Below, piece after piece: positions 1-28,058 of a stretch of 64,000 nt of DNA. The DNA lies in assembly GCA_049598575.1 (NCBI GenBank), contig JBMYNT010000003.1, forward strand, positions 1,155-65,154, in the 5' to 3' direction. The notes beneath the pieces are model-generated. The model saw nothing but the letters and a program-made list of their open reading frames with translations, was not told the origin of the DNA and made no database searches. The position numbers and the translations under genes are program-made. Position 1 is the stretch's first letter. Each line of letters opens with the position of its first letter. This DNA is from Candidatus Poseidoniaceae archaeon. Its GTDB lineage: Archaea > Thermoplasmatota > Poseidoniia > Poseidoniales > Poseidoniaceae.

Positions 1-451
1 TCTCATGATCTATTTCTCTGACAACATAACCACGGTGGAATTTGAGGACATCGTCCGAAAATTCTCGGAAGCAAAGGAAGCCCCTGGTTGTCTGTTGTTG
101 GCTCGTGAAGAGGAGCATCCAGAAGCATTCGGTGTTGCAGTTCTTGATGATGATGGCAACATCATCGATGTCGTTGAGAAGCCTGAAAATCCTCCATCGA
201 ATCTTGCAATCGGCGGAATTTATCTGTTCGATGAAACCTTCTGGGACAAACTCGATGATGCTGTTGAAGAGAAGGGTAAGTCCTTCTCAATTTCGGACAT
301 CAATCGCGCTTACATCGCTGAAGGAAAAGCAACCTTCGTTTCTGTAGGCGCAGACACGTGGGTCGACTGTGGTACGCCAGAAACCCTTCTCCAAGCCAGC
401 CTGATGGCAAAAGAAGGGAAGCTCAATCCTCGTCCATATCGGGAGAGATGA
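1..451 (+). CDS. Sugar-1-phosphate nucleotidyltransferase C-terminal part (RmlA / glucose-1-phosphate thymidylyltransferase-like), 5'-truncated by window edge
   Basis: ORF 5..451 in frame with window start; C-terminal region of NDP-sugar pyrophosphorylases (…GGIYLFD…, …[10 protein letters not shown]…). Adjacent to sugar dehydrogenase and GtrA genes. Confidence 0.55.
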
Positions 452-455
452 TTCT

Positions 456-1280
456 ATGAAAATCGGAATAATTGGAGCGGGAATGGTCGGTGGAGCGATT
501 GAGTACTGCTTTGGAGATGCACACGAGTTGTTTGTCCACGATCCTGCTCGTGGAACGGAGTTATCCGTTGTTACGGACAACGTCGATTTTGCGTACATCG
601 CTGTACCGACTCCGCCTCATCCAGAAACTGGAGCATGCGATACTCGCATCGTTGAGGCAACGCTTGATGCCTTACCAGATGGCTTCACTGCCGTCATCAA
701 AAGCACCGTTGTACCGGGGACAACACAACGCTATCACGAACAATACCCTCATCTCAAAATCGCTTATTCTCCAGAATTTTTGGTTGAACGTCAACGGTTA
801 GAGGATTTTGCAAATCAAGACATCTTGGTCTGTGGGACGCATCACGCTGATGTTGCAGAACGCGTGTTTGAACAACATCGCCAAGCAGGCGTTCTACGTC
901 GTGACCAAACCTTCCAAGTCACTCCAACACAAGCTGAATTGGTCAAATACACCAAGAACACATTCTATGCGATGAAAGTGACGTTTGCAAATCAATTGTA
1001 CGATATTTGCGAAGGACTTGGAGAAGATTGGTACAAAATTCGTGAAATCATCACTGCTGAACAAGCACAACCAATTGGTCCATCTCACCTCGATCCCATC
1101 TTCGGGTTGAACCGTGGATTTGGAGGCAAATGTTTGCCAAAAGATTCCTTGGCATTGGGCGTCCTCGCAGAACAACTTGGCGTGAAGTATGAATGGATGG
1201 ATGCGATGCAAAACGACAACAGTCGTTTGCGAACCATCCTGACAGGAAAGCCAAGCGATGTGGTGACCAATGACGACTGA
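456..1280 (+). CDS. UDP-glucose/GDP-mannose dehydrogenase family protein, short form lacking the C-terminal UDP-sugar-binding domain
   Basis: N-terminal Rossmann motif [13 protein letters not shown]; catalytic-Cys motif [10 protein letters not shown] near residue 235. The ORF stops about 40 aa after this motif at 274 aa, where typical family members are about 400-450 aa. Confidence 0.75.
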
Positions 1281-1725
1281 TCTGAGTCATGTCCACAACC
1301 GGTTAGCGCCTCGTGGGTCGCTGTGGCGATTTGGCCTCGCTGGTGGCTTCAACAGCGCTGTATTTTTCAGCGCATGGACCGTTTCGATGTTTCTCTTTCC
1401 AGAGGTTGATGTTCGTATTCTATGGGGAACATTCTGGGGCTTGACTGGGATTATGGCCCATTTTGTTCATCGATGGTACACCTTTGACAATCACAAATCG
1501 TTGCGATGGACCTTGCCCACAGCGATACCTGTTTACTTGGCAAGTATGTACGGCTCAAGTGTGACAATCGGATGGCTTGAAGGTGAATTTCCAGAACAGA
1601 TTGTTTGGCTAGGTATCCCAAATCTGTTGTTTTGGGGCGTCATTATCTGGCTAACCATGAGAATATTCGTCTTCCAATTTTCTCCATCTAGACCGCATGC
1701 GTCTCAAGAAGATCAAATGGAATAA
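1270..1725 (+). CDS. GtrA-family polysaccharide-synthesis membrane protein
   Basis: 151 aa with about 4 predicted TM helices and W/F-rich hydrophobic segments typical of GtrA-like proteins. Sits in a sugar-nucleotide gene context. Overlaps the previous gene by 11 nt. Confidence 0.55.
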
Positions 1726-2083
1726 TGCTCAATGCTTCTTCATGGGTTGCTTCCAAATCAACCGGGCAGGCTGAACCTGCGTGAACCGCAGCGAGCCACG
1801 TTCGTGCACAAACGCACCATGAATCGCCGGGCTTTAACCCAGGAAATGAAAAGTGAGGAGCAGGTGTCATCAAATCATTTCCTTGAGCTTTTGCAAATTC
1901 AAGAAAGTCCTGTGTCACCACACAACAAACCGTATGCGAGCCTCGGTCGTTGTCATCGGTGTTGCAGCAACCATCGCGATACCAACCAGTAAGAGGGTCT
2001 GTAGAACACGACTTGAGCTCAGTTCCAAGGACGTTCACGGATGGGTGCATGGTGAAGGCTTGAAACACCTCCCTATCAATCAT
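1688..2083 (-). CDS. DUF2237-family conserved hypothetical protein
   Basis: Motifs CSTDPLTGWYRDGCCNTDDNDRGSHTVC … RGNDLMTP…FPGLKPGDSWCVCARTW…LEATHEEAL match the characteristic DUF2237 signature. Confidence 0.55.
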   Translation of the reverse strand: MIDREVFQAFTMHPSVNVLGTELKSCSTDPLTGWYRDGCCNTDDNDRGSHTVCCVVTQDFLEFAKAQGNDLMTPAPHFSFPGLKPGDSWCVCARTWLAAVHAGSACPVDLEATHEEALSIIPFDLLETHAV

Positions 2084-2174
2084 CGTGTGGGTCCAAGCAT
2101 TGTTGCATCAAATGTCGATTTGTCCTGCCTTGGAGGCGAGAGGTTCATCATGGAGAAGCACAAGAGTGGTTCAG

Positions 2175-2606
2175 ATGCTACCAGATACTCTCCAGAATTT
2201 GCCCCGTGATGAACGATACGCATATGCTCGTTTGCTTGCATACATGGCCCGTGTCGATGAAGAAATTACCGTGGATGAACTTGCTATGTTTGAACAACAA
2301 CTTGGCAAAGCTCTCCTTTCTCCGAACCAACGAGAAGTCCTCCGAAGAGCGCTCAAGAGTCCTCCAACACTTGAGGAATGCTTGGATGGACTTGGTCCTG
2401 AAGCAGGACGCCTCGCTCTTCGAGATGCTGTCCTCATGGCAGCCTCAGATGGTTCGGTCGACGATGATGAACTCGAAGTTCTAGAAGAAATCGCTGAACA
2501 CCTCGGACTTGTCCCAGACGCTGTTGAACAACTCATCGAATGGACAAAGGTCGGATACACTTGGATGCAAGACGGATACGATCTGTTGAATTCTCTTCAA
2601 GGTTGA
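2175..2606 (+). CDS. TerB-like (tellurite-resistance TerB / DjlA-N-like) domain protein
   Basis: Pattern YAYARLLAYMARVDEEITVDELAMFEQ … DAVLMAASDGSVDDDELEVLEEIAEHLGL is a typical TerB-like helix pair with acidic residues. Start chosen at the internal ATG (2175) to avoid a divergent overlap with the DUF2237 gene. The ORF as computed starts at 2085. Confidence 0.5.
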   Translation: MLPDTLQNLPRDERYAYARLLAYMARVDEEITVDELAMFEQQLGKALLSPNQREVLRRALKSPPTLEECLDGLGPEAGRLALRDAVLMAASDGSVDDDELEVLEEIAEHLGLVPDAVEQLIEWTKVGYTWMQDGYDLLNSLQG

Positions 2607-2612
2607 AGCCCT

Positions 2613-3062
2613 ATGTTTTGCGACGGCGTCGCTGATTTGGACGCTGCTGAGCGAGCGCGTTACGCCGATTTGCTCGTCCTCATTGCTGCAGCGGATGGTG
2701 AGCTTGTTCGAGAAGAAATTCAAGTTCTCGAGGGTTTCATGGGACGAGCCATGGTTCACCCAGAAGCAAGAACATCCATCCGCAAAGGATTGTACGATAC
2801 AAATCGACTTTCAAATCTGTTGAAGAATGCTGAATTGGAAACCCTTCGATATGTCCTTCGGGACGGTGCTTTACTCGCTGCTGCTGATGGTGAATACGAC
2901 CGTAGAGAATTACGCATTCTCAAGAAAATCGCTTCCACTGCAGACGTTGATGAAACCGAATTGAAAGCACTCTTCGATTGGGTTGCAAAAGGTTGGGAGT
3001 GGCATGCTAATGGCGTGGTACTCGCAAAGTTGTCCGCGCGAAACGATTCACCTTCAGAATGA
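2613..3062 (+). CDS. TerB-like domain protein (paralog of the preceding gene)
   Basis: Pattern LLVLIAAADGELVREEIQVLEGFM … DGALLAAADGEYDRRELRILKKIAS is the same TerB-like repeat architecture. It lies 7 nt downstream of the previous TerB-like gene. Confidence 0.5.
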   Translation: MFCDGVADLDAAERARYADLLVLIAAADGELVREEIQVLEGFMGRAMVHPEARTSIRKGLYDTNRLSNLLKNAELETLRYVLRDGALLAAADGEYDRRELRILKKIASTADVDETELKALFDWVAKGWEWHANGVVLAKLSARNDSPSE

Positions 3063-3100
3063 ATCATTTCATGATTTCAACAGGCACATTCAAACCATGA

Positions 3101-5122
3101 TTGAATACCCACTGGTTGGGGCGGACTATGCAAAACGGAGTTAGCGGCTGGTATGCAAGATTAGATCGATGCTTGGACAACAGACAAACACAAATCGAAA
3201 TGTGGCTCGATGCATGGGAAAACTCCCTCCGAACCCACCAACCTATCGCTGCTCTTCTCCCAGAAGATTGGCCAACACTTCCAGCAAATCTTCTGACCGA
3301 TCCAGGTCATGTTCTCGACCATCTCCTCGCACGTCACGATGCAGAATCCGATGGTCGCTCCCCGCGTGGAGCACACCCTACTCCTCCTCGTCTCGCTGAT
3401 TCGATCATCTCATCGGAAATGCTCGAGGCGACCATCCAACCGAAGGTCAAGAAACAAACGACCAATATGCACCTAGCAGACCTTCCTCCTGGCTTCCAAA
3501 AGCACATCAAGAAGCTGAACTTCCCGCCCAGCGAAGAAGAGGTAACCCTCGATGAGGACTCGCTTGAAGCCGTCAAGCGCAGCGAACGCACGAGCAGCGG
3601 TATTCCGCTCCCGTTTTCAGACATGTCTTGTGGAGGAGGCATTTTCCATGCACGTATGCTTCGAAAGCACAGTGAGTTGTTTGAAGGACAGAGTACTGAT
3701 CTACGCAAAGAAGACACGGAACGACTGTTCCGAGGATTCCAACTTGTTGACGTCGATGAGCTTGTCGTCCGTTCCACTCGAAAGCGATTGTTGCTTGAAG
3801 CGATTCGCCTGGGTCTTGTCTCCCTCGAAGGCGAGCAAGAAGGTAAACTCGCTCGGAACCTCGTTGAAACCATCCTCGAGCAAAACATCGTTTGCTCCGA
3901 TACGCTCCAAGAAGACTGGCCATGGGACCAAGCACCTCGTTTGATCATCGCTAACCCTCCTTGGCTGCGCATCAAAGATCGATTCCGTGGCATGGAAGAT
4001 GGTTCACAACGCCGCAAGGACTTGAGCGAAAAACTACGAAGCCTCTCTAATGAGGATGGCCCTCGTTTCTCGACCATGCGTGGAAACGTCAACCTCTACC
4101 GGCTGTTCATCGAGCGCGGTATGCAAGTTCTCTCAACCGATGGAAAAATGCGAATCGTTGCTCCTGACAGCCTTCTACGAGAACAATCCTCTCACCCATT
4201 GCGAAAACTCCTGGTTGAGAAGCACTCGTGGAACGAAGTTTGGGCTATTGAAGAAGCCAATCTCTTGTTCCCTGGCATGACCCAGGGCGTTGCCATTCTT
4301 GGCATCTCATCGACGCCAAATGGAACGGAATCTCTCAACATCATCGGCCCAGTAACTCGTTCAGATCTACGACGTGTTGGCTCTGGAATCTCATCACGCG
4401 TCCCATCGTTCTCACTTACACAGGAACAATGGGTGCAATGGGCAAGAAACACATGGGCGGTGCCTCGTTTACCTCGTGACCAAATTGAGCGAAAGAGCAT
4501 CCTCAAGATTCTTGACAGTATGTCCCAACTTCCACGACTTGGCGATCATGACCACTGGCTTGCAACGCAAGAACAAACGGTCAAGGTCCGTGTTGGAGAA
4601 ATCGATCAAACAGCCCATTCGAACAACATTTCCAGCTGGGATAAGGCAAAGTCATCTCGTCCATTCATCCGAGGTGTTCATTTCACAGAGGACGAAACCG
4701 GTAGTGTCTACATCCGACACCCAGCTTTCCGAAAGGACATCCCATCGCGTGCGAACGAACGACAACTGGCTATGTGGTCTGGAAAAGCTGAAGTCCAAAC
4801 ATACGGTCCTCGCCTCGCTTGCCAAGCCATCGTGAATGCCCACCAAGAGCGTCGACTACGTTGGGCTGTGATTCCGAAAGGATGCATCCTCGGAAACAGT
4901 GTGAACCATATCGAAATGAACCAAGCCATCCTCAACAGATTGAGTGCAGCCAAAGGCGATCTTCAGAAAGCATTGGAGTGGATGTGCGACCAACTCAACC
5001 AACGCGACTTAGACGATTGGGCAAAGGCCTGGTCCGCCAACAACAACGTCAACAATTACGAATTGGAAATGCTCCCTCTTCAACTAGGGCTTGAAACCGG
5101 TGTTGAAGAAGTCGCACAATGA
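3101..5122 (+). CDS. Gamma-class N6-adenine DNA methyltransferase (Eco57I/TaqI-like), stand-alone
   Basis: Motif X-like GAHPTPPRLADSII, motif I-like DMSCGGGIF, and motif IV IIANPPWLRIKDRF (NPPW), in gamma-class order X-I-IV. An NLYRLFIERG…MRIVAPDSLL segment follows NPPW as in the Eco57I family. About 380 aa follow as a candidate target-recognition domain. No endonuclease or HsdS/HsdR gene is adjacent. Confidence 0.75.
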   Translation: MNTHWLGRTMQNGVSGWYARLDRCLDNRQTQIEMWLDAWENSLRTHQPIAALLPEDWPTLPANLLTDPGHVLDHLLARHDAESDGRSPRGAHPTPPRLADSIISSEMLEATIQPKVKKQTTNMHLADLPPGFQKHIKKLNFPPSEEEVTLDEDSLEAVKRSERTSSGIPLPFSDMSCGGGIFHARMLRKHSELFEGQSTDLRKEDTERLFRGFQLVDVDELVVRSTRKRLLLEAIRLGLVSLEGEQEGKLARNLVETILEQNIVCSDTLQEDWPWDQAPRLIIANPPWLRIKDRFRGMEDGSQRRKDLSEKLRSLSNEDGPRFSTMRGNVNLYRLFIERGMQVLSTDGKMRIVAPDSLLREQSSHPLRKLLVEKHSWNEVWAIEEANLLFPGMTQGVAILGISSTPNGTESLNIIGPVTRSDLRRVGSGISSRVPSFSLTQEQWVQWARNTWAVPRLPRDQIERKSILKILDSMSQLPRLGDHDHWLATQEQTVKVRVGEIDQTAHSNNISSWDKAKSSRPFIRGVHFTEDETGSVYIRHPAFRKDIPSRANERQLAMWSGKAEVQTYGPRLACQAIVNAHQERRLRWAVIPKGCILGNSVNHIEMNQAILNRLSAAKGDLQKALEWMCDQLNQRDLDDWAKAWSANNNVNNYELEMLPLQLGLETGVEEVAQ

Positions 5123-5157
5123 TGGAAGAACGTTGCATCTTTGATAGTTTGAATACG

Positions 5158-5219
5158 ATGTTTTATATCCAGACCCTTGTTAGTTTTGATTGGTATTTGT
5201 CAGTTGGAGGATTCTAAGA
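5158..5219 (+). promoter_or_regulatory. Putative archaeal promoter (TATA-like TTTTATAT) and Shine-Dalgarno GGAGG upstream of the NTPase gene
   Basis: TTTTATAT at 5161-5168, GGAGG at 5206-5210, ATG at 5220. The spacing is consistent with an archaeal BRE/TATA promoter followed by a short leader. Confidence 0.4.
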
Positions 5220-5798
5220 ATGGGCATTCATCCAAAAATTGGCATTACGGGGCTCCCCCGTAGTGGGAAATCCGCAGTTATGGAGAAAGTCCTCTCCATG
5301 CTCAAAGAAGAACGTGAGCGTGAGTTGTCTGCTCGAAATTTGAGCGATACAGAAATCATCGGTGGAATTTGTACGGAACCAATCCTCGAAAATGGAGAGC
5401 GCCTCGGATACAAGGTCAGGGACTTGGTTACTGGAGACGAAGGTGAAATCGCTCACAAGAGCATCGATTCCAGATTGCGCGTCCTTGGATATGGTCTCAA
5501 CACAGCTGAACTTGAACGTGTAGCCATCCCTGCGATTCAACATGCTATTGACAACTGCGAAGTCATCGTCATCGATGAAATTGGAAAATTCGCCGTTGAA
5601 TCGGAAGCCTTTGTCAATGCTGTTCGCAACGCTCTCGAAATCGACAAGCCGACGCTCCTTACACTACACAAAAAGAGCCGACACCCATTGTTGCAAGACA
5701 TTCGACGGAGAGACGATGGTCGTATTCTGGAAGTCACTCCAGTCAACCGCGCCCTTCTGCCCTACAAGATTCACAAATTGATGCGAGAAACCTACTGA
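5220..5798 (+). CDS. Nucleoside-triphosphatase THEP1 family (archaeal NTPase)
   Basis: Walker A motif IGITGLPRSGKS and a Walker B-like VIVIDEIGKF. Size of about 190 aa is typical of MJ1559-like THEP1 proteins. Confidence 0.7.
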   Translation: MGIHPKIGITGLPRSGKSAVMEKVLSMLKEERERELSARNLSDTEIIGGICTEPILENGERLGYKVRDLVTGDEGEIAHKSIDSRLRVLGYGLNTAELERVAIPAIQHAIDNCEVIVIDEIGKFAVESEAFVNAVRNALEIDKPTLLTLHKKSRHPLLQDIRRRDDGRILEVTPVNRALLPYKIHKLMRETY

Positions 5799-5808
5799 TA
5801 ACGTTGGT

Positions 5809-6162
5809 TTGATACATTGCGTCATCCTCGAGGGTTCAATGACTCCAGCGGACCGAGCGCGAAAAATCCTCTTGGGAACGGGGATGTGTCTCGTTTTCGT
5901 TTCCGCTGTTGGCCTCCATTCAGGACGTTATTCAACAACTCCTGAGATCGGCTGGCTCTTCCCAATCATTGCCGCAGTTCTCATCGGAGTAGGGCTCAGA
6001 AAGGGAAACCTTGGTCAACAATTCCCTGATGAATCGGATGATGAAATGACGCAACGTGTTCAAGACGATGTTCAACAGACAGAGAAAGAGAAGAATGTTG
6101 GTCAAGCATGGGCTTCTTTGGAACAACACGTCTTGAAGTCAGAAATTGATGAAGCCGAATGA
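5809..6162 (+). CDS. Hypothetical small membrane protein (2 TM) with acidic C-terminal tail
   Basis: Two hydrophobic segments (LLGTGMCLVFVSAVGL, WLFPIIAAVLIGVGL) followed by a D/E-rich tail. No recognisable family. Confidence 0.3.
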   Translation: MIHCVILEGSMTPADRARKILLGTGMCLVFVSAVGLHSGRYSTTPEIGWLFPIIAAVLIGVGLRKGNLGQQFPDESDDEMTQRVQDDVQQTEKEKNVGQAWASLEQHVLKSEIDEAE

Positions 6163-6221
6163 GATATGTCGGAAGCGGTTGATTCATACCCTTCATTTAC
6201 TTCCGTCAATGTGGTGAGAGC

Positions 6222-6605
6222 ATGAGTGAAATACCTGCTGAATTGTTTTACACGAAAGAACACGAATGGATTCGAATGGATGGAGATATTGCAACCATTG
6301 GCATTACAGACCATGCCCAAGATGCACTTACAGACATCGTCTACATTGAACTGCCAGAAGGTGGAGAAATGCTGGAAGATATGGGTGAGTTTGCAATCGT
6401 CGAATCGGTAAAGTCCGCATCCCCTATCTTTGCTCCTCTTGCTGGAGAAATCACAGAGGTCAACTTCGATCTCGAAGACACACCTGAATTGATGAATTCA
6501 AGCCCATATGGCGATGGGTGGATTGTCAAAATGAAGTTGTCGAATCCAGATGATGTTTCAACACTCATGTCTGCAGATGCTTATCGAAGCATGTTAGGCG
6601 AGTGA
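6222..6605 (+). CDS. gcvH: Glycine cleavage system H protein
   Basis: 127 aa with lipoyl-lysine motif …IVESVKSASPIFAPLAGEI… and the conserved EHEWIR/GITDHAQ N-terminus. Confidence 0.85.
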   Translation: MSEIPAELFYTKEHEWIRMDGDIATIGITDHAQDALTDIVYIELPEGGEMLEDMGEFAIVESVKSASPIFAPLAGEITEVNFDLEDTPELMNSSPYGDGWIVKMKLSNPDDVSTLMSADAYRSMLGE

Positions 6606-7150
6606 ACATATTGAGCGAACCAACGCGACTCACGTTGTACGTTGATGGTTCGTGCGATGGGAATCAGAACGTTAACGCGACCACACCTGCGGGCTGGGGC
6701 GTAGTAGTTGTCGAAGGAGATTCAGGCCTTGGACGTGGTAGTGGAGAAATCCTGACAGAATTGTCAGGACCCGTTTCAACCTCGCCCGAAGATGAGGAAT
6801 TCATCGGAGCAGAAGTTGGTTCGAACAATACTGCTGAGCTCTCTGGACTCTTTGCAGCATTACGATGGCTATTAACCGAAGAGAATGAAGATCCTGTTTG
6901 CATTCGTCTCGATAGTCAATATGCGGGAAACATTGCAACTGGAGCGTGGAGGGCAAAAGCGAACAGAGAGTTAGCGGCACGAGTTCAATCGGTTTGGAAC
7001 GAAGTAGCCTCTCAACGAGAACTCTCTTGGAATCACGTTCGTGCACATCGTGGCCATCGGTGGAACGAGCGTGCTGACCATCTTGCAAAACGAGCAATGC
7101 GTCGAGAACGTCCCTTACCTCTCACGTTTTGGAAGCCTGGACAAGATTAA
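6602..7150 (+). CDS. rnhA: Ribonuclease HI
   Basis: Motifs LYVDGSC (Asp), NNTAELSGL (Glu), RLDSQYA (Asp) and HVRAHRGHRWNERADHLA (His/Asp) match the RNase H type 1 catalytic residues. Confidence 0.8.
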   Translation: MNILSEPTRLTLYVDGSCDGNQNVNATTPAGWGVVVVEGDSGLGRGSGEILTELSGPVSTSPEDEEFIGAEVGSNNTAELSGLFAALRWLLTEENEDPVCIRLDSQYAGNIATGAWRAKANRELAARVQSVWNEVASQRELSWNHVRAHRGHRWNERADHLAKRAMRRERPLPLTFWKPGQD

Positions 7151-8007
7151 GCAAGTCGTTCGTTCAACCACGCTTGCAAATCTTCTGCATACTCAGGCCG
7201 ACGTAATGCATGATCGATTTGCGACTTCAGCCATTCGAACGGTAAACCGGAATCATACCACGAAACAGAATCGGACAAGACGTGCGCATGAAGACGATCA
7301 GAATTCATCCAGTGTTTCATCAATGCAATCGATTGAAGTTCCCCGTATTCTTCCACGGAATAATGGTCGAGAAGTTCAAACGTATCCCCTGCAAACACAT
7401 ACCGACCACATAGGGCGTATGTGGAGGGAGCCTCTTCTTGGCCCGGTTTTTCTACAATGGAAACAATTCTTTCTTCGTCCATCGATACGATGCCATAGTT
7501 GCTCACGCGGTCTTTACCCACATTGTAGACTGATGCGCTTGGTTGGCCATGTTTCTCAAACAACTGGACAAGTTCCTTTGAAACGTTCGAAGGTTGAAAT
7601 TCAGTTAACGATGCGTGATTGGAAGTCAAGATGTTGTCTCCAAGCAACACCAGGAATGGTCCTGCAATGGCTTCCTTCGCCATCATGATGGCGTGACCAA
7701 GACCTTTCTGCTCATGTTGAGTGTGGAAGAAGACTTCGACCCCATCAAGCGGATTGAGATGAGCGTTGCCTTTTGCAAACATCGCATATGTTGCATTGAG
7801 ATTTTCTTGGAGAGGGGTGAAATCTTTTGCTGGCGAAGTGATGATGTGAATTCGGTCACACCCTGCATGTTTGGCTTCAAGAATGAGATGATGCATCACA
7901 GGAAGATCAACCAAGGGCAACAATTCCTTTGGAACATACGCGCTTGTTGGAAGCATTCGGGTACCCAAACCTGCGGCGACAATGACAGCATCACGAACCG
8001 TGCCCAT
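7147..8007 (-). CDS. UTP-glucose-1-phosphate uridylyltransferase-like sugar nucleotidyltransferase (GalU family)
   Basis: Motifs VIVAAGLGTRMLP…PKELLP, GLGHAIMMA, VVEKP and LLGDNI. Start set at the internal Met (MGTVRD) because the upstream 56 codons are non-conserved and overlap a divergent gene. Confidence 0.7.
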   Translation of the reverse strand: MGTVRDAVIVAAGLGTRMLPTSAYVPKELLPLVDLPVMHHLILEAKHAGCDRIHIITSPAKDFTPLQENLNATYAMFAKGNAHLNPLDGVEVFFHTQHEQKGLGHAIMMAKEAIAGPFLVLLGDNILTSNHASLTEFQPSNVSKELVQLFEKHGQPSASVYNVGKDRVSNYGIVSMDEERIVSIVEKPGQEEAPSTYALCGRYVFAGDTFELLDHYSVEEYGELQSIALMKHWMNSDRLHAHVLSDSVSWYDSGLPFEWLKSQIDHALRRPEYAEDLQAWLNERLA

Positions 8008-8059
8008 GCTGTTGCTTGCAAGCGACAGGCTATCAAGCGTACACCCACTCGTAGGATTA

Positions 8060-8473
8060 ATGGAGTCAAATCGTAAGGTGGTTCTTCTCGCCAGTGGCGT
8101 GATACTCCTTTCGTTTTCATTCTTTGAATTCCTTCCTGCTGGACCTTGGCTCGATGCTTCCTTCTCGAGAGGCATGAGCGGATTGCTCGGACTGTCGCTT
8201 CTCTATCTCAGTTGGTTTGAGTATGTGTTCAAGGAGGCTGGAGTTGTTCCAACCATCGCAAAATGGAAGCATCCTGAGTCCACTTGGAAGACCGTTGTGG
8301 CTGTAGGATTTTTCGTCCTTGGCTTATCCTGGGTTTCTGGGAACACAGGAGTTGGTGATGTTCTTCCTGAGCCTTCTGCAATGCTCCTCATGTTGATTGG
8401 TTTGCTCATCACCTACACTGGTTTCTACGCCTACTTGGTAACAAATGGACCGCTCAGGAATGAAGAGGAATGA
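8060..8473 (+). CDS. Hypothetical membrane protein
   Basis: Four to five hydrophobic helices. The start is uncertain: the ORF begins at 7982, and internal starts exist at 8060 and 8174. Confidence 0.3.
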   Translation: MESNRKVVLLASGVILLSFSFFEFLPAGPWLDASFSRGMSGLLGLSLLYLSWFEYVFKEAGVVPTIAKWKHPESTWKTVVAVGFFVLGLSWVSGNTGVGDVLPEPSAMLLMLIGLLITYTGFYAYLVTNGPLRNEEE

Positions 8474-8474
8474 G

Positions 8475-10484
8475 TTATTCTTCTTCTGTTGTGAAGACGT
8501 TCTCTTCGTTCCCTTTCATCGATACGATGATGAGAATGTAGGCTGCAATAACGCCCACAATCAGCAACAATGGGAGAGAGATAGAGTCCTCCGATGAGCC
8601 TTCTTTGTCATCAACAAGTTGCGAATCACTCGTATTGTTGGTTTGTTTGATTTCTTCTTCCGGCCAGTCAATTCCGATACGAACAATATGGATATCACCA
8701 TTCACATTTGTTGATTCGATATGAATGAGATTGACAGGTTCCTCGATCTTAATTGAAAACTCATCATCGGACATGGAGGCTGAAGACCAGAATGGATTTG
8801 TGTTCAGAGCATCGGTCCATCGAATGGTTGAATTTGTCTGAGAATGTGTAAACTGAAGCGTGAAAGTGTCGTTCGTTTGTGATTGAAGAGTTACCCAATC
8901 CCCATTCCTCAGTGATCGATTTTCATCTGTTAAATGAAGCATGAATTCGGGTAAATCAACACGCTCGATTGCACTCGAATCGTTGGTTGTTGCAGGATTA
9001 TTGGATTGTTCTTCGGGTGCAAAGAAGACAGCATTCTGTCCAAGAAGAATACGATCATCACGATGGGATCCTGGTGATGCACCCCAAGTGCCTTCCAACG
9101 TCAAGGCGTACCAAGCCTCGCCCAGTTCCCCAAAGGTCATGTGATGCTCAAGCGTTTTCGGGTTCAATCGCGTAAGTTCTTCCCAAGCAGGTGTCATATC
9201 TGGGTTGGGAGAAGTTGACGTCCAGAGAATTGCATCTCCACTGATGAAGCGTGCATCGAGTTCCCACTCAAAGTGAAGTGTAGCATTATCTTGTTCAATA
9301 AGTAATTCAGAAATTGAAATGGGTACATTCCTCTCGAGGATTGGTCCGACCTTCCCCGAAACATCGAACTGATCAATCTGAGCATTGCCTCGAGTGTCAA
9401 CGAGTCCGATGGCATAGTGGGATGTTAACATCCAATCATCGGACAGCTGGTGAATAAACTCTACACTCGTTGTGTCCAATTCAGCGAGAACTTGAACGCC
9501 ACTCTGCTCGAATGATACGATTGGGCTCGTGGCATGGTAAACTCGAATCTTAGCGATGTCCGATTGCGTCACTTCGCTCCATTGCAAAACTGTTTGAGAT
9601 TCACTTGAATTGAATTGTGCGATCAACGAACCACCGTATCTTGGAGCTTGGTTGTCTTCAATAATTGGTGCAGTGAGGCTGTTCGCACTGTGCAAGCGCG
9701 TATCTTCACGTGCAGGATAACATCCAAAGTCATCGCAATATGGAGGATAGAAACATGTCAATGTGTAGTAGACTTCACGATCGATGGATTGGTTTGTCCA
9801 ATCGAGCGTAAATTGCGATGATGTCGCAGGTATGAAATTTGTAACAAGCGTTTTGTCCATACCATCCCATGATGATTTTGTCGCAGGCACGGAATGTTCG
9901 TACAACGAGTGATAGAAATTATTGCCAGCACACGCTGGTCTCCATGTGAATACAGTAGATTGATTGGTTACGTCGTACTGCGCTGCGAATAGTTCGGGCG
10001 CAACTGAGTCAGGGACCACCTCCCGGTGACCTCCTGGAATCTGAGACAATCCGACATTCACTGCCTCAGTTCGCGTCCCATCACGGAGAACAGTTACAAC
10101 TGCGTAGGAAACTTCTCGTGACGTTCCCGGTGCAGGCTCATAGACGAACGTATGCCCTTTTCCTGAACAATCCTCATTCAAGTCGTTCATGTAGCAAGCA
10201 GGAATGTCTTCTGCGACCATGGTTTCAGGCGTAATGGCATTGGCAAAGAACCGCCCGTTTTCGATGCGGTGTACTTCATACGTTGCCATCTTCAACTGAT
10301 CAAGAAGCAACCCATCGGTCGTCTCAATGTTTCTCCATTGTAAAATGGTTGATTCCGAATCTGGGAAGAACTCTGCCCATGTTTCACGCGCTTCCAAAGT
10401 CTCATCCTCTTCTTCAGCGGCGACTGATTGCAAAGGAAATGCGAGTAGAAGGACAAGAACGAGGGCAAAGACTTGCGTTCTCAT
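8475..10484 (-). CDS. Secreted, C-terminally anchored cell-surface glycoprotein with fibronectin-III-like repeats (S-layer/surface protein candidate)
   Basis: Signal peptide MRTQVFALVLVLLLAFPLQSVAA. Recurring roughly 100-aa modules are marked by TILQW/TVFTW/TVLQW/LHFEW/FTLQF. There are many N-x-S/T sequons, and a C-terminal TM helix LPLLLIVGVIAAYILIIV with a short tail. The protein is very acidic. Confidence 0.55.
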   Translation of the reverse strand: MRTQVFALVLVLLLAFPLQSVAAEEEDETLEARETWAEFFPDSESTILQWRNIETTDGLLLDQLKMATYEVHRIENGRFFANAITPETMVAEDIPACYMNDLNEDCSGKGHTFVYEPAPGTSREVSYAVVTVLRDGTRTEAVNVGLSQIPGGHREVVPDSVAPELFAAQYDVTNQSTVFTWRPACAGNNFYHSLYEHSVPATKSSWDGMDKTLVTNFIPATSSQFTLDWTNQSIDREVYYTLTCFYPPYCDDFGCYPAREDTRLHSANSLTAPIIEDNQAPRYGGSLIAQFNSSESQTVLQWSEVTQSDIAKIRVYHATSPIVSFEQSGVQVLAELDTTSVEFIHQLSDDWMLTSHYAIGLVDTRGNAQIDQFDVSGKVGPILERNVPISISELLIEQDNATLHFEWELDARFISGDAILWTSTSPNPDMTPAWEELTRLNPKTLEHHMTFGELGEAWYALTLEGTWGASPGSHRDDRILLGQNAVFFAPEEQSNNPATTNDSSAIERVDLPEFMLHLTDENRSLRNGDWVTLQSQTNDTFTLQFTHSQTNSTIRWTDALNTNPFWSSASMSDDEFSIKIEEPVNLIHIESTNVNGDIHIVRIGIDWPEEEIKQTNNTSDSQLVDDKEGSSEDSISLPLLLIVGVIAAYILIIVSMKGNEENVFTTEEE

Positions 10485-10538
10485 AACAACGAGTTACACA
10501 GCACCCATTATCAGCGTGTCGCATTGTTGATGATACAT

Positions 10539-12038
10539 CTAATCGATGAAGCCCAGCGTATCATCCAACATGTTGAGTGCATCATCAAGATCAGGCAATT
10601 CCTCAGGAGCCTCACCAGTGCTCTGGTGAACATCCTGAACTGGAGCAATGGATTCAGGAAGTGGCCCGTCGTTGGACAACCAGTCTTTCCACAATTGGCT
10701 TCGTCCTTGGCGACGAGCATCCATGGTCATCCACAGGGCTTCAAGGCGCTCTGGTTTGAGTAGTGGAAGATGTTTTGCAAAACGTTGTGGATGGATTTCA
10801 TCCATACGCATGAGTAATTCTCGCAGACGGATTTGGACGACTTCATCACCATCGTTCCATAAAGATGGGATGATTTCTCGAACATCGTCTGGATAGGCCT
10901 CAACGTAATCGCGTAGACTGAGTACGATGTTTCTTCGGACGATAGGAACTTCATGTTCAAGCAAAGAGGCGAGACGGTCTGCCCAAACGTCTTCATCGAG
11001 GAATTTCAAATCACCAACCGTTGCAGAGGCTGCTGCGAGAACGCTTTCATCCTCGTCCTTCAACATCTCATCAAGGAATGGTACGGCTTCCCAACCGGTT
11101 CGTCGGAACATTCGTGTCAAAACATCTGCCATGCCACGTCGAAGGAGCAATTCTTCACGCTCATGTAGGATTTTTGCAACGTGAAGTCCTTGTTCCTGAT
11201 CGTACTCAAGGAGTCGGGCGAGACAGAGAATGACCTTGGAGGCAACTTCTTGGTGTTCATCTTCAGCTCTTCGGACTAGTATGTTCACCAATCCGAGTGG
11301 TTCGATCAACGCGGGCCGCTCCAAGAGAAGTTTGACCCACTCCATCAGCAACAGCCGCCGGTCCAAATCATCGTTTTCCAAACAATTCAGTAGCCACGTA
11401 GCAGCCTCGACACCCGCATCATGCGCAACGACAGATGTCGTTCTTGGGACAACAGCATTCGGATTCCATCCCAAGTTCTGTGGCCCATCCTCGGGTTGTG
11501 TGTGCCAGGTACCAGGGCGTTCAGCTAGCGCAATGGATTCGACCAAATGATAGCCTTGGTGAACGGGTTGGCCGTATGGAGTCGAAGCAAGTCCATTGAC
11601 GAGGGCAACGGCAAGCCACCATCGATCGGTATTCGGAGCGCTCGGGTCAAAGGCTTGAGCCAACCAATCGGTTGCGATGCAGAACAGCATGCGTTGTGCC
11701 ACATCATCGGTACGACGTCCCAACCATTTTTGGTGGACTTCGAACGGATCATCGCTCAGATTCATTCGATGAGGCACGATGAGATCGACAATCGTCGAAA
11801 GGTGTCGATCGAACATACCAACATCAGCATGCAACATGGAGAGACCTTGTGAAATCAAATCTTGATCACGTTCTGGACTTCGAGGAGGGAAGTCTGGGTC
11901 CGTGATAGGGGGAGATGGAAGAGGCCATACTTTGGTCCCATCCTCGAGGGCTTGAACCAACTTCGTAGCAACAACCTCAAACGTTGCTTTCGCAATCGTA
12001 TCACGGCTCTTACTCATGAAGAACCCTCCTTTCCTCAA
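10539..12038 (-). CDS. HEAT/ARM-repeat protein, hypothetical
   Basis: Repeated about 35-40-aa helical units (…[12 protein letters not shown]…, …[15 protein letters not shown]…, …[13 protein letters not shown]…). Its start codon overlaps the tfb stop by 4 nt (ATGA). Confidence 0.5.
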
Positions 12039-12961
12039 ATGTCCAATTCAATGTTGAGGTTTTGAATCAGTTCCTTGTACCGGTTTCGGATGGTAACTTC
12101 GGTGACACCAGCGACTTCAGCAACTTCTCGTTGTGTACGACGCTTTCCGCAAAGAACGGATGCGATGTAAATAATCGAAGCAGCGATACCGGTTGGTCCA
12201 CGACCGCTGGTCAATTCCTTTTCTTGAGCAGCCTTGATCAATTCGTAGGCCTTTGCTTCGACTTCAGAATCCAATCCTAGGCCAGAGCAGAATCGAGAGA
12301 TGTAGTCCTCAGGTCCGGTTGGCATGATTTTCATTTTTAATTCGCGGACCATGAAACGGTATGTACGTCCAATTTCCTTTCGTCCGGTTCGGGACGCTTG
12401 GCCAATTTCATCGAGTGTTCGAGGCACACCACATTGACGGCATGCAGCATAGAGTGATGCTGCAGCTACACCTTCAATCGATCGTCCGCGAATGAGACGC
12501 TTGTCGACGGCTTTCTTGTAATTGACAGCGGCTGCTTCACGGACCGTCTTGGGTAATTCAAGGCGGCTTGCCATTCGGTCAAGCTCAGCCAATGCCATAG
12601 CAAGGTTGCGCTCGGTCGCATTGCTGACACGACTACGCTTCTGCCACTTTCGCATTCGGTAGAATTGAGAACGGTAACGGGAATTAATGGTTTTTCCAGA
12701 GTAATCCTTGTTTTGCCAATCGATATCGGTCGAGAGACCCTTGTCGTGAAGCATGACCGTCATTGGGGCACCAGTACGAGCCCTTTGATCGCCTTGTTCA
12801 GGAGAGAATACTCGCCATTCTGCACCTTGATCGATAACGTTGTCTTCCAAAACAAGTCCGCAGTCGTCACAGGTGACTTCTCCACGGGTCTCGTCTCTCG
12901 TTAGGCTTCGTCCGCCACATTCTTGGCACTTTACAATATCTTCAACTTGCTGATCATCCAT
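12035..12961 (-). CDS. tfb: Transcription initiation factor IIB
   Basis: N-terminal Zn ribbon CQECGG…CDDCG, followed by two cyclin-fold repeats (…[14 protein letters not shown]…, …[16 protein letters not shown]…). 308 aa. Confidence 0.9.
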
Positions 12962-13069
12962 AACATCTCACCTCATGAATATTGAGAAATAGATATATCA
13001 ACGATTGGTATGGTATTTTTAAACCTTATCGTTCGTTATTTTTGTGGAGTATGAGAGTAGGGCAGCGAA
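12962..13069. promoter_or_regulatory. AT-rich divergent intergenic region between tfb (-) and aconitase-family gene (+); likely promoters
   Basis: TATA-like elements are present on both strands (TTTAAAAATA and GATATATC on the minus-strand reading; AGATATATCA on the plus strand). Confidence 0.35.
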
Positions 13070-15097
13070 TTGGTTAAACCTCAATGGCTTGTGAGTAGAT
13101 TGGGGATGAATATGCAGGGAATGCCAGATTCGATTTCGCTCACACCCGGCAAGCGGGTTCTCTTCCTCACCAAAGACCTCGATTTGATTCGTCAGCAGTT
13201 GTACGAAGGCCTCGATTTGCGAATGGAGGACCTGCGTGTGGAGGACCTCCTCGATGACATCAATACCGATGTTATGACACCAGCATGGGTTTGTTTTGAT
13301 CACGAACCAGCCATGATTGCAAAAAACGCATACGCTGGATTGATGCAAAACGGACTTCGCGTGTTCAACGAGAATGCTCTGATCAATGGAAATTTCGAAG
13401 TCATCGTCTCCGGTCAGAGAAAGGGCACTGGATCTAGTCGTGAGACGGCAGCACAGTGCGAGCGATGGGCAGGTATCCGAATCGTTATCGCAGCTTCCTT
13501 CGCTCCGATTCATGAACGGAACAACATCAATCTCGGTCAACTTATGGGCGATCACGCAATGTTGGAACGTTTGCAAAACGGTGAATCCTTGCCATTAAGC
13601 GAGTTCACGTCACAATACGATGATGTTACGGCACTCATCCTCGAGTCAGGAGGTCTGTTCGAATTTTCCAAGCGTCTCAGCAATGGTGAAATCGAACTAC
13701 CTAAACTGTCGACGGAACAACACCCAATGACAATGGCTGAGAAAATCATCGCGCGTAATCTCGTTGGCCAACCAGAAGGCGCATGTGTCAAGCCTGATGA
13801 TCCGGTGATTGCTCAGGTCCAAGGCGGCTATTCTCACGAATTTACAACGGCACAAGTCCACACGTTCCTTCAGGAAACGTATGGAGAGGATTACCAATTG
13901 GCAAATCCGCAAAAATTTGGCGTTTTTGAGGACCACTTGTTGTATGCACATCACAATCCAAAATTTGTACCGTTCATGCACAAAGTCGAGACCCTACGTG
14001 AATTGCAGAAGGTCTTCCAAGATCACACTGGGGTGCGTGATTACTCGGCAGTCGACGGAGTATCGCCCGGCATCTGCCATCAAGTAGCACGCGAGGAGTT
14101 CATCGAAGTCTCCGATTTCATTCAAGCAACAGACTCGCACACCTGCATGGGCGGTGCATCAAATGCACTCACTTGGGGCGTTGGGGCCACCGAATACGCC
14201 AACCTTGTTTCTGCAGGATTCACCTTTGTCAAGGTTCCAGAATCAATTCGATTCGAATTATCAGGATCGCTCAATGAAGGATGTACGGCAAAGGACGTTA
14301 TTCTGCACATTCTCGCAGACCATGCTCGAAAAGAACTGACGTTGAATCGTTCCATGGAATTCGGCGGCCCTGGTCTTCAGTCACTGTCCGCTGACGAGCG
14401 TGCAACATTGTGCAACATGGCAACAGAGTGTTCGGCTCGAACCGGCATCTGTGAAGCAGATGACATTCTCTACGATTGGATGGAGGCACAAATGCCTCAC
14501 TTGAACATGGACGAGCAGCGCCAAAGAGCCGTCGCTCCAGACGAAGGTGCACACTATCACGGAGGCGTTCATCACATCGATTTGTCTTCCATTCGACCAA
14601 TGGTTGCACATCCTGGAAATCCTGACGAGGGTATCCCGAGCGACCCGACCAATGGCGCATACATCGATGAAATCGGTGATGTAGCCATCGATATTGCATA
14701 CGGAGGATCGTGCACTGCAGGGAAGATCGATGACATTGCATACTATGCCAAAGTCTGCCAAGCTGCAAAGGATCAGGGCCTATCGGTCAAGGAAGGTGTT
14801 GATTTTTACATTCAATACGGATCCGGGATTGTCAAGGATGTTGCCGTTTCGAAGGGTTGGCACCAGTTGTTCCTCGATGTTGGCGTGAAACTCATCGATC
14901 CTGGTTGCGGCGCTTGCATCGGAGCAGGCCCTGGCGTGTCTATGACGCCAGACCAAGTCACCGTTTCTGCCATCAACAGAAATTTTCAAGGCCGCTCTGG
15001 CCCTGGAAAACTGTACCTTGCTAGCCCTCTCACCGTAGCGATGAGTGCGTTCAGTGGAACAATTCGATCCTGGAAAACAGAAAGCATCGGACATTGA
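13070..15097 (+). CDS. Aconitase / 3-isopropylmalate dehydratase superfamily hydro-lyase with N-terminal swivel (LeuD-like) domain
   Basis: N-terminal swivel signature VIVSGQRKGTGSSRETAAQCERWAGIRIVIAASFAPIHERNNINLGQL. Catalytic motifs DSHTCMGGASNALTWGVGATE, GGSCTAG and DPGCGACIG conserve the three Cys that ligate the 4Fe-4S cluster. Confidence 0.75.
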   Translation: MVKPQWLVSRLGMNMQGMPDSISLTPGKRVLFLTKDLDLIRQQLYEGLDLRMEDLRVEDLLDDINTDVMTPAWVCFDHEPAMIAKNAYAGLMQNGLRVFNENALINGNFEVIVSGQRKGTGSSRETAAQCERWAGIRIVIAASFAPIHERNNINLGQLMGDHAMLERLQNGESLPLSEFTSQYDDVTALILESGGLFEFSKRLSNGEIELPKLSTEQHPMTMAEKIIARNLVGQPEGACVKPDDPVIAQVQGGYSHEFTTAQVHTFLQETYGEDYQLANPQKFGVFEDHLLYAHHNPKFVPFMHKVETLRELQKVFQDHTGVRDYSAVDGVSPGICHQVAREEFIEVSDFIQATDSHTCMGGASNALTWGVGATEYANLVSAGFTFVKVPESIRFELSGSLNEGCTAKDVILHILADHARKELTLNRSMEFGGPGLQSLSADERATLCNMATECSARTGICEADDILYDWMEAQMPHLNMDEQRQRAVAPDEGAHYHGGVHHIDLSSIRPMVAHPGNPDEGIPSDPTNGAYIDEIGDVAIDIAYGGSCTAGKIDDIAYYAKVCQAAKDQGLSVKEGVDFYIQYGSGIVKDVAVSKGWHQLFLDVGVKLIDPGCGACIGAGPGVSMTPDQVTVSAINRNFQGRSGPGKLYLASPLTVAMSAFSGTIRSWKTESIGH

Positions 15098-15234
15098 GGA
15101 TTTTTGCCTCAACGTTTCAATTTCGTCCGAAATATGAAGTAGCCTCGCCAATCGACTGCTGTTACCTGCTGGCCCGAAGTCTTGGACGGAGGAGGACCTG
15201 GGGTGGATGTGTCGAATTGAGTATTGCAGAAAAG

Positions 15235-17280: not shown

Positions 17281-18374
17281 TGGCTGAACGCAAATCCATT
17301 GAAGAGACAAAGACGGCATTGCATGATGTTGTTCGCGAGATGTACGATCGTATCGTGAAAGGTGACCCGCCGACAATGACACTTCCTGTCCGTACCAAGA
17401 ACAACATCGGTTTTGATCCAAAATTAGGCGTTTACAAATACGGAAAGAAACAGACGATTCGTGATGCTACAAGCCTTGGTTCTGCAAAGCAACTCCTGCG
17501 AGCACTCCACGTTATCGAATTCATCGAGAGTATGATTGATGATGGGAAATCATCAACGCTTCGTGAAATGTACTATATTTCCGAAGGCTGGGGCCTTGGA
17601 AAATTCCAATCCCAAAACGAAAGCAACAACCTTGCCGAGGATCTTGAGATTGTTACCCGATGTCTTCGTGAAGACTTCAAACTTCGACCTGAAGAAGACG
17701 GTGCCAGAATGATTGGAAATCTTACGCTTCGAGAGCGAAACCGCCGTGGAGAGTGGATGCGAATCAATGCTCGTGACGATGTTGGCGATAGTGGTTATGG
17801 GGTCCCTTACAACGTTGAAGCCGAGAAGATTGAATTCCTCGAACACGATATCAATTTCATCATGGCCATCGAGACGGGTGGTATGTTTGACCGACTTGTC
17901 GAGAATGGTTTCGATGAGGATTTCAACTGTGCCTTGTTGCACCTGAAGGGACAACCTGCACGTTCAACTCGGCGAATTATGAAGAGGATGAGTGAGGAGT
18001 GGGATCTCCCTGTTGTCGTCTTCCTCGACGGTGACCCCTGGTCGTTCCGTATCTTTGCTTCAATTGCTTATGGTGCAATCAAAACTGCGCACATTTCTGA
18101 ATACTTGGCAACGCCGACTTCAACGTACCTCGGAATTACCGCAGATGATATCCTCGCTTACGATCTACCAAGCGATGACCTCTCCAAGAAGGATATCGAA
18201 GCGCTGAACGCTGAATTGAGTGACCCGCGATTCGCTGATGGTTGGTGGCAAGAACAGATCAACATGATGTTGGAAGTTGGCAAGAAGGCTGAACAGCAAT
18301 CCTTAGCAAAATACGGTCTTGATTTCGTTACAGAGACCTATTTGCCTGAGAAACTTCAACAGCTTGGATTGTGA
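17280..18374 (+). CDS. top6A: DNA topoisomerase VI subunit A (Spo11-like)
   Basis: Winged-helix region with catalytic Tyr context REMYYISEGW, followed by a Toprim domain (…IMAIETGGMFDRL…, …VFLDGDPWSFRI…). Its ATG overlaps the top6B stop (TGATGG). Confidence 0.9.
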   Translation: MAERKSIEETKTALHDVVREMYDRIVKGDPPTMTLPVRTKNNIGFDPKLGVYKYGKKQTIRDATSLGSAKQLLRALHVIEFIESMIDDGKSSTLREMYYISEGWGLGKFQSQNESNNLAEDLEIVTRCLREDFKLRPEEDGARMIGNLTLRERNRRGEWMRINARDDVGDSGYGVPYNVEAEKIEFLEHDINFIMAIETGGMFDRLVENGFDEDFNCALLHLKGQPARSTRRIMKRMSEEWDLPVVVFLDGDPWSFRIFASIAYGAIKTAHISEYLATPTSTYLGITADDILAYDLPSDDLSKKDIEALNAELSDPRFADGWWQEQINMMLEVGKKAEQQSLAKYGLDFVTETYLPEKLQQLGL

Positions 18375-18401
18375 AAGGAAAAAGCGAGGCTTCTTTGAGG
18401 A

Positions 18402-19406: not shown

Positions 19407-19474
19407 ATCCCGGGGTTCTGAACCTCCGACGAGTTCAAATGAGTCCGTCTCTACCTAACTACAGGTTGAGTAGT

Positions 19475-20209: not shown

Positions 20210-20214
20210 TTTGA

Positions 20215-25224: not shown

Positions 25225-25313
25225 AGGAACACCTGTGTGTCTATAAGCAACCTTCACCACTACTTAACCGCGACCCTTACGCGTCAGAAATCAAAGGGGG
25301 CGAAATGTGTTAT

Positions 25314-25940: not shown

Positions 25941-25970
25941 GATGAACCGGAGTGTTTGGGTGTTTTGAAC

Positions 25971-27596: not shown

Positions 27597-27598
27597 AT

Positions 27599-28030
27599 TC
27601 AGGCCCCCATCGTAATGTCAGTGGCAAGCGAAGCCAACGCTTGGTGGTCTGGATCATGAGGCGGATTGGACGGCCACATCGCAGCGAGTGTTGACCCACT
27701 ATCGCCTTCCGTCCTTGGAAGAACGTGTACGTGGACATGTGGAACTTCTTGTCCGGCAAGAGGGCCATCGTGGATAAGGATGGTGAAATCCGTTGTTCCA
27801 AAGTAGTTAGAGAGTCGAGTTTGAACCTCAACAACGCCTGACATCAATTGTGACCGCTCACGCTCATCAAGTTGAGCAAGTCGTTGGACTGGTGTTGTTG
27901 GAATGACCAGTGTGTGGCCTTCTCTTCTTGGAAAGATATCGAGGAAAGCGTACCACCCTTCACCTTCTCCAATCTTGTGCGAGGGAATCTCTCCTGACAG
28001 AATGCGTTCAAACAACGTTGGTTCTGCCAT
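27599..28030 (-). CDS. HIT-family (histidine triad) nucleotide hydrolase
   Basis: Histidine triad HVHVHVLPR preceded by TLVIPT…; about 140 aa from the internal start MAEPTLFERIL. The N-terminal 48 codons of the ORF are not conserved. Confidence 0.8.
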   Translation of the reverse strand: MAEPTLFERILSGEIPSHKIGEGEGWYAFLDIFPRREGHTLVIPTTPVQRLAQLDERERSQLMSGVVEVQTRLSNYFGTTDFTILIHDGPLAGQEVPHVHVHVLPRTEGDSGSTLAAMWPSNPPHDPDHQALASLATDITMGA

Positions 28031-28058
28031 GGTTGGGCGAAGCAGCCCGAACAAATAA

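Follow-up and report, generated by a model that had tools for sequence, protein, structure and literature searches.

The DNA analysed here, a 64,000-nucleotide stretch of contig JBMYNT010000003.1 from a Candidatus Poseidoniaceae archaeon (hereafter the window), carries near its start a gene for a predicted N6-adenine DNA methyltransferase (MTase), and it is this gene and its neighbours that we describe (Table 1). An earlier note on the same DNA had proposed a gamma-class MTase in this open reading frame (ORF) on the basis of motifs X, I and IV; the ORF and all three motifs are indeed present, and we also located motifs II, III, V and VI. Since the orthologs open with MQNGVSGWY in an alignment, the likeliest start is the ATG at 3128. 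Two TerB-like genes lie just upstream, as had been suggested, and both ORFs pass the Pfam TerB cutoff; a THEP1-type NTPase gene lies immediately downstream. The neighbours are housekeeping genes, in agreement with the earlier statement that no endonuclease, HsdR or HsdS gene is nearby.

Table 1. Features of the MTase gene, its protein product and its immediate neighbours (positions in the window)
Feature	Position	Strand	Evidence or remark
TerB-domain protein 1, 143 aa	2175..2606	+	Pfam TerB E=2.6e-7, 31.4 bits vs cutoff 24.4
TerB-domain protein 2, 149 aa	2613..3062	+	Pfam TerB E=2.1e-8, 34.9 bits vs cutoff 24.4
Conserved box CAGGCACATTCAAACC (CACATTCAAA box)	3083..3098	+	~40 nt 5' of the MTase ATG
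Shine-Dalgarno-like run GGGGCGG	3116-3122	+	5' of the MTase ATG
MTase coding sequence, 664 aa	3128..5122	+	Longest ORF 3101..5122, 673 aa from TTG
N-terminal helical domain, closing with motif X	3128..3415	+	Ortholog identity, model
Motif X GAHPTPPRLADSII	3368-3409	+	Position checked
Variable acidic linker, motif X to motif I	3416..3595	+	Ortholog identity, pLDDT
Rossmann-fold catalytic domain	3596..4300	+	Motifs I-VI
Motif I FSDMSCGGGIF	3614-3646	+	Position checked
Motif II FQLVDVDE	3737-3760	+	Position checked
Motif III VCSDTL	3890-3907	+	Position checked
Motif IV NPPW	3953-3964	+	Position checked
Motif V NVNLYRLFIERGMQVLSTDG	4085-4144	+	Position checked
Motif VI RIVAPDSLL	4151-4177	+	Position checked
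C-terminal target-recognition domain, closing with invariant ANNNVNNYELE.LP	4301..5086	+	TIGR02987, PADLOC, outgroups
TATA-like TTTATATC	5162-5169	+	~50 nt 5' of the NTPase ATG; followed by GGAGGA Shine-Dalgarno
THEP1-type NTPase (PF03266)	5220..5798	+	Pfam E=1.6e-40; NCBIfam PRK13695 E=5.5e-44

The motifs of the MTase run in the order X, I, II, III, IV and V-VI and are followed by a C-terminal recognition domain, which is the gamma-class order, and the Eco57I-like character proposed earlier is borne out by a Pfam Eco57I match above cutoff (PF07669, residues 216-384; E=2.2e-10; 41.3 bits, with the cutoff at 25.3). The NCBIfam model TIGR02987, which describes the N6-methyladenine (m6A) MTases of Alw26I, Eco31I and Esp3I, matched residues 281-660 at E=4e-24, with a score of 85.2 bits that lies below the cutoff of 353.5 for membership of that family, and the PADLOC model MTase_II (PDLC03237) matched residues 281-661 (E=1e-25). 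The remaining PADLOC matches were to generic type I, II and IIG methyltransferase models, those to IIG being confined to the MTase core, together with one weak match to mad2; no system was called. Model and profile together place the end of the catalytic domain at about residue 400 and assign residues 401-662 to the recognition domain. The recognition domain expected by the earlier note is therefore present, but at about 260 aa it is smaller than the roughly 380 aa given there, since the catalytic domain reaches so far.

A search of the PDB with the single sequence gave marginal matches, and profile and fold searches were needed. An AlphaFold2 model built from a 34-sequence alignment had a predicted local distance difference test score (pLDDT) of 87.5 and a predicted template modelling score of 0.85; its N-terminal domain is all-helical, and the acidic linker accounts for the lowest pLDDT blocks (52-73). 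Foldseek comparison of this model with the PDB returned DNA-bound CamA first (E=9e-20, template modelling score 0.5-0.6), followed by M.BseCI, BrxX/PglX, M.TaqI and BpuSI, and all of the top 50 matches were DNA adenine MTases or type IIG/BREX enzymes. The family profile also matched CamA (E=3.6e-37) in an alignment that starts at motif X, runs through the rest of the catalytic domain and superimposes the MTase motifs on those of CamA residue by residue; LlaGI, BseCI, LlaBIII, BsaXI, TaqI and HsdM followed. Motifs V and VI align residue by residue with TaqI as well, and profile positions 18-80 align with the helical region that precedes the MTase core in LlaGI, LlaBIII and HsdM. We also considered a fused type IIG or MmeI-like restriction-modification (R-M) enzyme and rejected it: residues 1-160 are helical or disordered in the model, with no beta-sheet, and no nuclease family of Pfam matched.

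We assessed conservation in 16 divergent orthologs with 51-85% identity. In motif X, G90, H92, T94, P95, A99 and D100 are invariant, as are D174, G178, G180 and D217 in motifs I-III, where D267 is at least 90% conserved. The motif IV residues P286-P287-W288 and the LRIKDRFRG that follows them are invariant, and N285, which is replaced by D in one sequence, is at least 90% conserved. Conservation extends to motifs V and VI and to the C-terminal ANNNVNNYELE.LP. Loss of the motif IV or S-adenosylmethionine (SAM)-binding residues, which the earlier note had named as a reason to abandon its reading, is thus not what these orthologs display. The most conserved part of the protein is the N-terminal helical domain, with 74% mean pairwise identity and 49% invariant columns; the acidic linker falls to 34% mean pairwise identity. 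The catalytic domain (61%, with 30% invariant columns) and the C-terminal domain (57%, with 31% invariant columns) are similar. The recognition domain is thus as constrained as the active site. R-M or defence MTases usually show the reverse, and this equal constraint leads us to predict one fixed specificity across the order.

To describe the distribution of the gene, we scanned one genome per GTDB species. We found 332 stretches that encode a relative of the MTase, which is a count of stretches and not a fraction of Poseidoniales species. The provenance of the best 80 of these was inspected, and all are Poseidoniales, 'Euryarchaeota' or Marine Group II (MGII) assemblies, bar one evidently misbinned contig. 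That contig (L010, CALDQY010000253.1) is 11 kb long, is 98% identical to the region and sits in a metagenome-assembled genome (MAG) labelled 'uncultured Rhodobiaceae bacterium', a label that is almost certainly a binning error. Full-length orthologs across Poseidoniales share 42-99% identity, and the carriers include the 2.06-Mb MG-II chromosome CM001443.1, contigs of 0.4-3 Mb with the orthologs P0027, P0048 and P0113, and P-MAG CM1_5m.P78, which was sequenced by the single-molecule real-time (SMRT) method and has the gene at about 57.5-59.5 kb of BOYQ01000001.1. The best protein homologs span the full length and carry the labels Candidatus Poseidoniaceae, Poseidonia or Thalassarchaeaceae. An exhaustive HMMER pass over 1.84 billion cluster representatives (50%-identity clusters) yielded two full-length representatives only, P0085 (54% identity) and P0121 (43%), the second of which is a Poseidoniales protein too; beyond them, scores fall from 568 to 92 bits, a level at which the matches are generic Alw26I-type MTases whose alignments start only at residue 171 or 257. 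No relatives were found among the viral contigs of IMG/VR. The drop in score, the Poseidoniales origin of P0121 and the lack of viral relatives together indicate that the family is a tight, isolated clade confined to Poseidoniales. Divergence of the MTase correlates with that of neighbouring genes (Spearman 0.58-0.83). We conclude that the MTase is a single-copy, vertically inherited core gene of Poseidoniales. One ortholog, P0031 from a Candidatus Poseidonia sp., carries the NCBI name 'BREX-1 system adenine-specific DNA-methyltransferase PglX'; no BREX genes lie beside the MTase in any locus examined, and hence this name is probably wrong.

The order of genes around the MTase is common to Poseidoniaceae and Thalassarchaeaceae: UDP-glucose dehydrogenase, a membrane protein, (DUF2237), TerB, TerB, MTase, NTPase, a small membrane protein, GcvH and RNase H, with TFB farther along, past RNase H. 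The TerB tandem lies immediately 5' of the MTase in 75 of the 78 loci with enough flank, and the NTPase gene lies immediately 3' in 85 of 86, the lone exception being a scaffold gap (a run of N). A seeming 330-nt insertion at 7969..8274 of the locus of a UBA443 ortholog (L021) is a run of N that marks a scaffold gap and no biological insertion. The sole variable spot of the otherwise fixed block is the position of the DUF2237 gene, which lies between the membrane protein and the first TerB gene (1688..2083, minus strand); it is present in most Poseidoniaceae loci and absent from Thalassarchaeaceae loci, and a glutaredoxin gene adjoins in some loci. The three loci that lack the TerB pair (L005-L007) belong to the P0121 lineage, whose MTases are ~42-43% identical to the one studied here. 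Their order is isocitrate dehydrogenase, a 216-aa ORF, MTase, NTPase, a small ORF, GcvH and RNase H, and the segment from UDP-glucose dehydrogenase to TerB is missing 5' of the MTase. The nearest outgroup MTases, P0172 and P0173, stand alone amid housekeeping genes with neither a TerB nor an NTPase neighbour, and both have weak TaqI_C matches in the part that corresponds to the C-terminal domain; the P0173 contig is archaeal (fibrillarin, Nop). The adjacency of TerB genes and MTase, which the earlier note had wished to see followed in relatives, is therefore widely kept, but it is absent from the P0121 lineage and the outgroups.

PADLOC, Pfam and NCBIfam scans covered the neighbours and most ORFs of at least 90 aa in the window. 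We examined the possibility of a defence island and discarded it, since these scans found housekeeping genes only; PADLOC gave a weak PDC-S48 match for the first TerB protein (E=1.5e-4). The neighbours also include an NTP-transferase, TFB, aconitase and Topo VI A and B, and elsewhere in the window lie genes for an RFC-like clamp loader, Trm5/Tyw2, glutamine synthetase, an SRP54-family GTPase, peptidases, transporters and large surface proteins. A 1681-aa protein encoded at 20215..25260 (minus strand) has CARDB and NPCBM-associated domains, and a 669-aa protein encoded at 8475..10484 (minus strand) has an apparent N-terminal signal sequence, a C-terminal membrane anchor and no Pfam match; both are presumably at the cell surface. 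Base composition stays even throughout the region. The window belongs to the core chromosome of an MGII archaeon and is no island.

Upstream of the MTase start, the orthologs share a box with the consensus GG(G/N)TCAC(A/C)TTCAAA(C/G) at -40 to -43, within a spacer that otherwise diverges, and a GGTGGGG-type Shine-Dalgarno sequence 3' of it. The core [AC]TTCAAA occurs at this position in 74 of 79 distinct ortholog upstream regions, where 1.3% per region is expected by chance, the regions being phylogenetically related. An RNA structure in the 5' leader was considered and set aside: RNAalifold gave -1.08 kcal/mol with no covariation, and what is conserved is the sequence of the box. A non-canonical promoter and an operator are possible readings of it. 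A different box, TTTAT(A/C/T)T, lies at about -50 of the NTPase gene in most of the divergent orthologs inspected, probably as the archaeal TATA box of a promoter that the NTPase gene has to itself.

The reading that we favour, and consider probable, is that the gene encodes a gamma-class m6A DNA MTase that is solitary, occurs throughout the order, recognises one fixed motif and has an epigenetic or housekeeping role. We found no partner nuclease beside the MTase, either in the window or at 87 related loci, and neither a type IIS nuclease nor a 5-methylcytosine (m5C) MTase in the window or the ortholog flanks; a cognate restriction endonuclease in a conserved operon, the other observation that would have counted against the earlier proposal, was seen with no ortholog. 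Because a restriction partner is lacking, we regard the MTase as a lineage-wide solitary (orphan) enzyme. The first of the two options in the earlier note, an orphan or epigenetic MTase, is the one that these data favour: the motifs are conserved, CamA ranks top by both fold and profile, and no partner accompanies the gene in its relatives. We infer DNA as the substrate, enzymatic activity, a fixed motif and a biological role, in the following form. The protein would be an active, monomeric, CamA/TaqI-like, SAM-dependent N6-adenine DNA methyltransferase, whose C-terminal recognition domain would read one short DNA motif, the same across the order. Motifs I-III would hold SAM, whose methyl group would pass to N6 of the target adenine once this had been flipped into the NPPW pocket. 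On the chromosome, the resulting mark would act in epigenetics or housekeeping, for instance in regulating genes or in timing replication or repair, rather than in shielding the cell from a nuclease.

Several points weigh against this reading. That DNA would be the substrate is drawn from homology and a predicted fold. No single m6A motif is reported as common to all MGII MAGs in SMRT metagenomes (PMC8919816, PMC9516812), and the main texts of these two studies neither mention the MTase gene nor tie a motif to it. Since the TIGR02987 score is far below the trusted cutoff, specificity is not transferable from a known enzyme. Finally, our nuclease survey spans the 64-kb window and the ortholog flanks, and a cognate nuclease could lie elsewhere in the genome.

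Published methylomes offer several candidate motifs. In a SMRT metagenome, GATC was methylated in nearly all archaeal MAGs, two MAGs being GATC-negative, and CGCG in some Euryarchaeota, with weak modification of AGCT in Poseidoniia, and solitary GTAC and GAAAC were also reported (PMC8919816); for MGIIa, CGCG and a novel GGTAG without an assigned enzyme have been described (PMC9516812). Across the window (1..64000), the 4-bp palindromes with the lowest ratios of observed to expected counts (O/E) are AGCT (0.41), TATA (0.55), GATC (0.57) and CGCG (0.61), and three of these, AGCT, GATC and CGCG, coincide exactly with the motifs for which methylation has been reported in marine Euryarchaeota/Poseidoniia MAGs. 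The asymmetric candidates GGTAG, GAGAC and GAAAC are hardly depleted or not at all (O/E 0.81-0.94). Depletion of AGCT, GATC and CGCG looks like a signature of restriction avoidance, and this resemblance tentatively suggests that the depleted palindromes belong to other systems of the R-M type. As a clue to the target of the MTase we discarded motif depletion, which is uninformative on an orphan enzyme.

The depletion enters the argument in another way, in that it suggests restriction pressure in the lineage and so lends something to the idea that the MTase is the modification half of an R-M system whose nuclease is encoded elsewhere in the genome. The sole nuclease-like gene in the window, at 46765..47832 (plus strand), encodes a 355-aa protein with a NERD nuclease-related domain (Pfam E=4.7e-14). 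However, it lies 41 kb from the MTase with no evident link, and it matches the NERD portion only of the PADLOC models MkoA and PglW. Where a match has been found, the depleted palindromes are assigned to other MTases (CGCG, PMC9516812). Moreover, R-M genes are normally adjacent, mobile and patchily distributed, with fast-evolving recognition domains, whereas the MTase is order-wide and syntenic and its recognition domain is constrained. We consider this R-M reading very improbable. A housekeeping MTase for rRNA, tRNA or protein, evolved from an Eco57I-like DNA MTase, would account for the core-gene behaviour of the family and for the lack of a universal DNA motif in MGII. Pockets of the N/D-PP-Y/F/W type are found in RNA and protein amino-MTases too. 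The conservation of the MTase is of the housekeeping type, and its location is among housekeeping genes. Published methylomes of MGII report no asymmetric m6A motif that is universal (PMC8919816, PMC9516812). Against this stand the fold and profile matches listed, which are almost entirely DNA MTases, C-terminal domain included, and the homology of that domain to the parts of Alw26I-type and TaqI_C-type enzymes that recognise DNA; in Pfam and NCBIfam scans, the MTase matched no RNA MTase family at E<=0.01. A non-DNA substrate is distinctly unlikely on this evidence.

The neighbours raise a different question, namely whether the MTase works as one functional module with its TerB and NTPase neighbours, in which TerB proteins that sense stress or metal and an NTPase control or assist the MTase, or which acts as a nuclease-free defence or epigenetic switch. 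TerB domains have been tied by comparative genomics to DNA-processing proteins, and both the TerB tandem (75/78 loci) and the NTPase gene (85/86) adjoin the MTase on one strand with gaps of 65-190 nt. Yet at least 6 kb on either side is syntenic, and because the whole region is so, the adjacency of MTase, TerB and NTPase genes by itself carries no information. The P0121 lineage keeps the MTase and NTPase genes with no TerB gene nearby, the outgroups P0172 and P0173 have neither neighbour, and PADLOC finds no system; a nuclease or effector is likewise absent. A conserved upstream box precedes the MTase gene, and another, TATA-like, precedes the NTPase gene, which points to separate promoters and so weakens the operon-based case for functional coupling. 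We regard the module as unlikely, and the simplest view is that the genes for the TerB pair and the THEP1 NTPase are neighbours conserved within a block that rearranges slowly. The second option of the earlier note, a defence pairing of the MTase with the TerB genes, fares no better: the genes belong to a housekeeping synteny block without a PADLOC system, and the pairing is unsupported because the P0121 lineage retains the MTase and NTPase genes without an adjoining TerB pair. A combined scheme, in which an order-wide, invariant m6A mark is written within the four-gene module, the TerB pair and NTPase sense stress or metal and gate methylation, and the mark is GGTAG or GATC, is in our judgement a rather unlikely one.

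MGII archaea are among the most abundant planktonic archaea and are still uncultured. Because the MTase is a single-copy core gene with a constrained recognition domain, a solitary DNA MTase with one fixed motif predicts a universal epigenetic mark for the whole order. This prediction is addressable with existing SMRT metagenomes, since P-MAG CM1_5m.P78 carries the gene. A lineage-wide motif, if true, would allow methylation-based binning of MGII contigs and the linking of MGII viruses and mobile elements to their hosts, and would give a first handle on epigenetic regulation in MGII. It would also correct the database names 'BREX PglX' and 'hypothetical protein'.

CamA (C. difficile adenine methyltransferase A; PDB 7LNI and related entries) is, by profile and by predicted fold, the closest relative with a solved structure. 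As in the MTase, a gamma-class catalytic domain is followed by a C-terminal DNA-recognition domain, and both enzymes are orphans. CamA is present in all sequenced C. difficile genomes and methylates CAAAAA (PMC8187626). The two proteins differ in that their identity in a structural alignment is only ~13%, the acidic linker and the conserved N-terminal helical domain of ~80 residues have no counterpart in CamA, and CamA is bacterial and species-restricted whereas the MTase family spans an archaeal order. The Alw26I/Eco31I/Esp3I enzymes give the best family-level match, from motif IV through the recognition domain, and the nearest relatives outside Poseidoniales bear their name; in contrast to them, the MTase has no fused or adjacent m5C MTase or type IIS nuclease, and TIGR02987 leaves its first 280 residues uncovered. 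M.TaqI and M.BseCI, stand-alone gamma-class type II MTases, are likewise monomeric two-domain enzymes with an N/D-PP-Y/W catalytic loop and alignable motifs V and VI, but each is half of an R-M pair whose nuclease is encoded next to it, and neither is a core gene of a whole lineage. BREX PglX/BrxX has an Eco57I-type catalytic core as well (Foldseek E ~1e-14), but PglX is ~1200 aa long and is encoded in a brxA-brxB-brxC-pglX-pglZ-brxL operon, whereas the MTase has 664 aa and none of that operon is present; PADLOC gave no match to PglX, PglZ or BrxC for the MTase, either TerB protein or the NTPase.

In its lack of a partner nuclease, its vertical inheritance and its constrained specificity across a large clade, the MTase resembles Dam and CcrM. 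These are of the alpha and beta class, respectively, and belong to lineages unrelated to the gamma-class MTase, and their motifs and their cell-cycle or repair roles are established. A full-text search of the literature on Poseidoniales/MGII methyltransferases, methylomes and restriction-modification found no paper describing the MTase. Clade-wide orphan MTases are thus already known in Dam, CcrM and CamA, and the MTase is a previously undescribed addition to them, one that is set apart by its span across a whole order of abundant uncultured archaea and by its highly conserved N-terminal helical domain.

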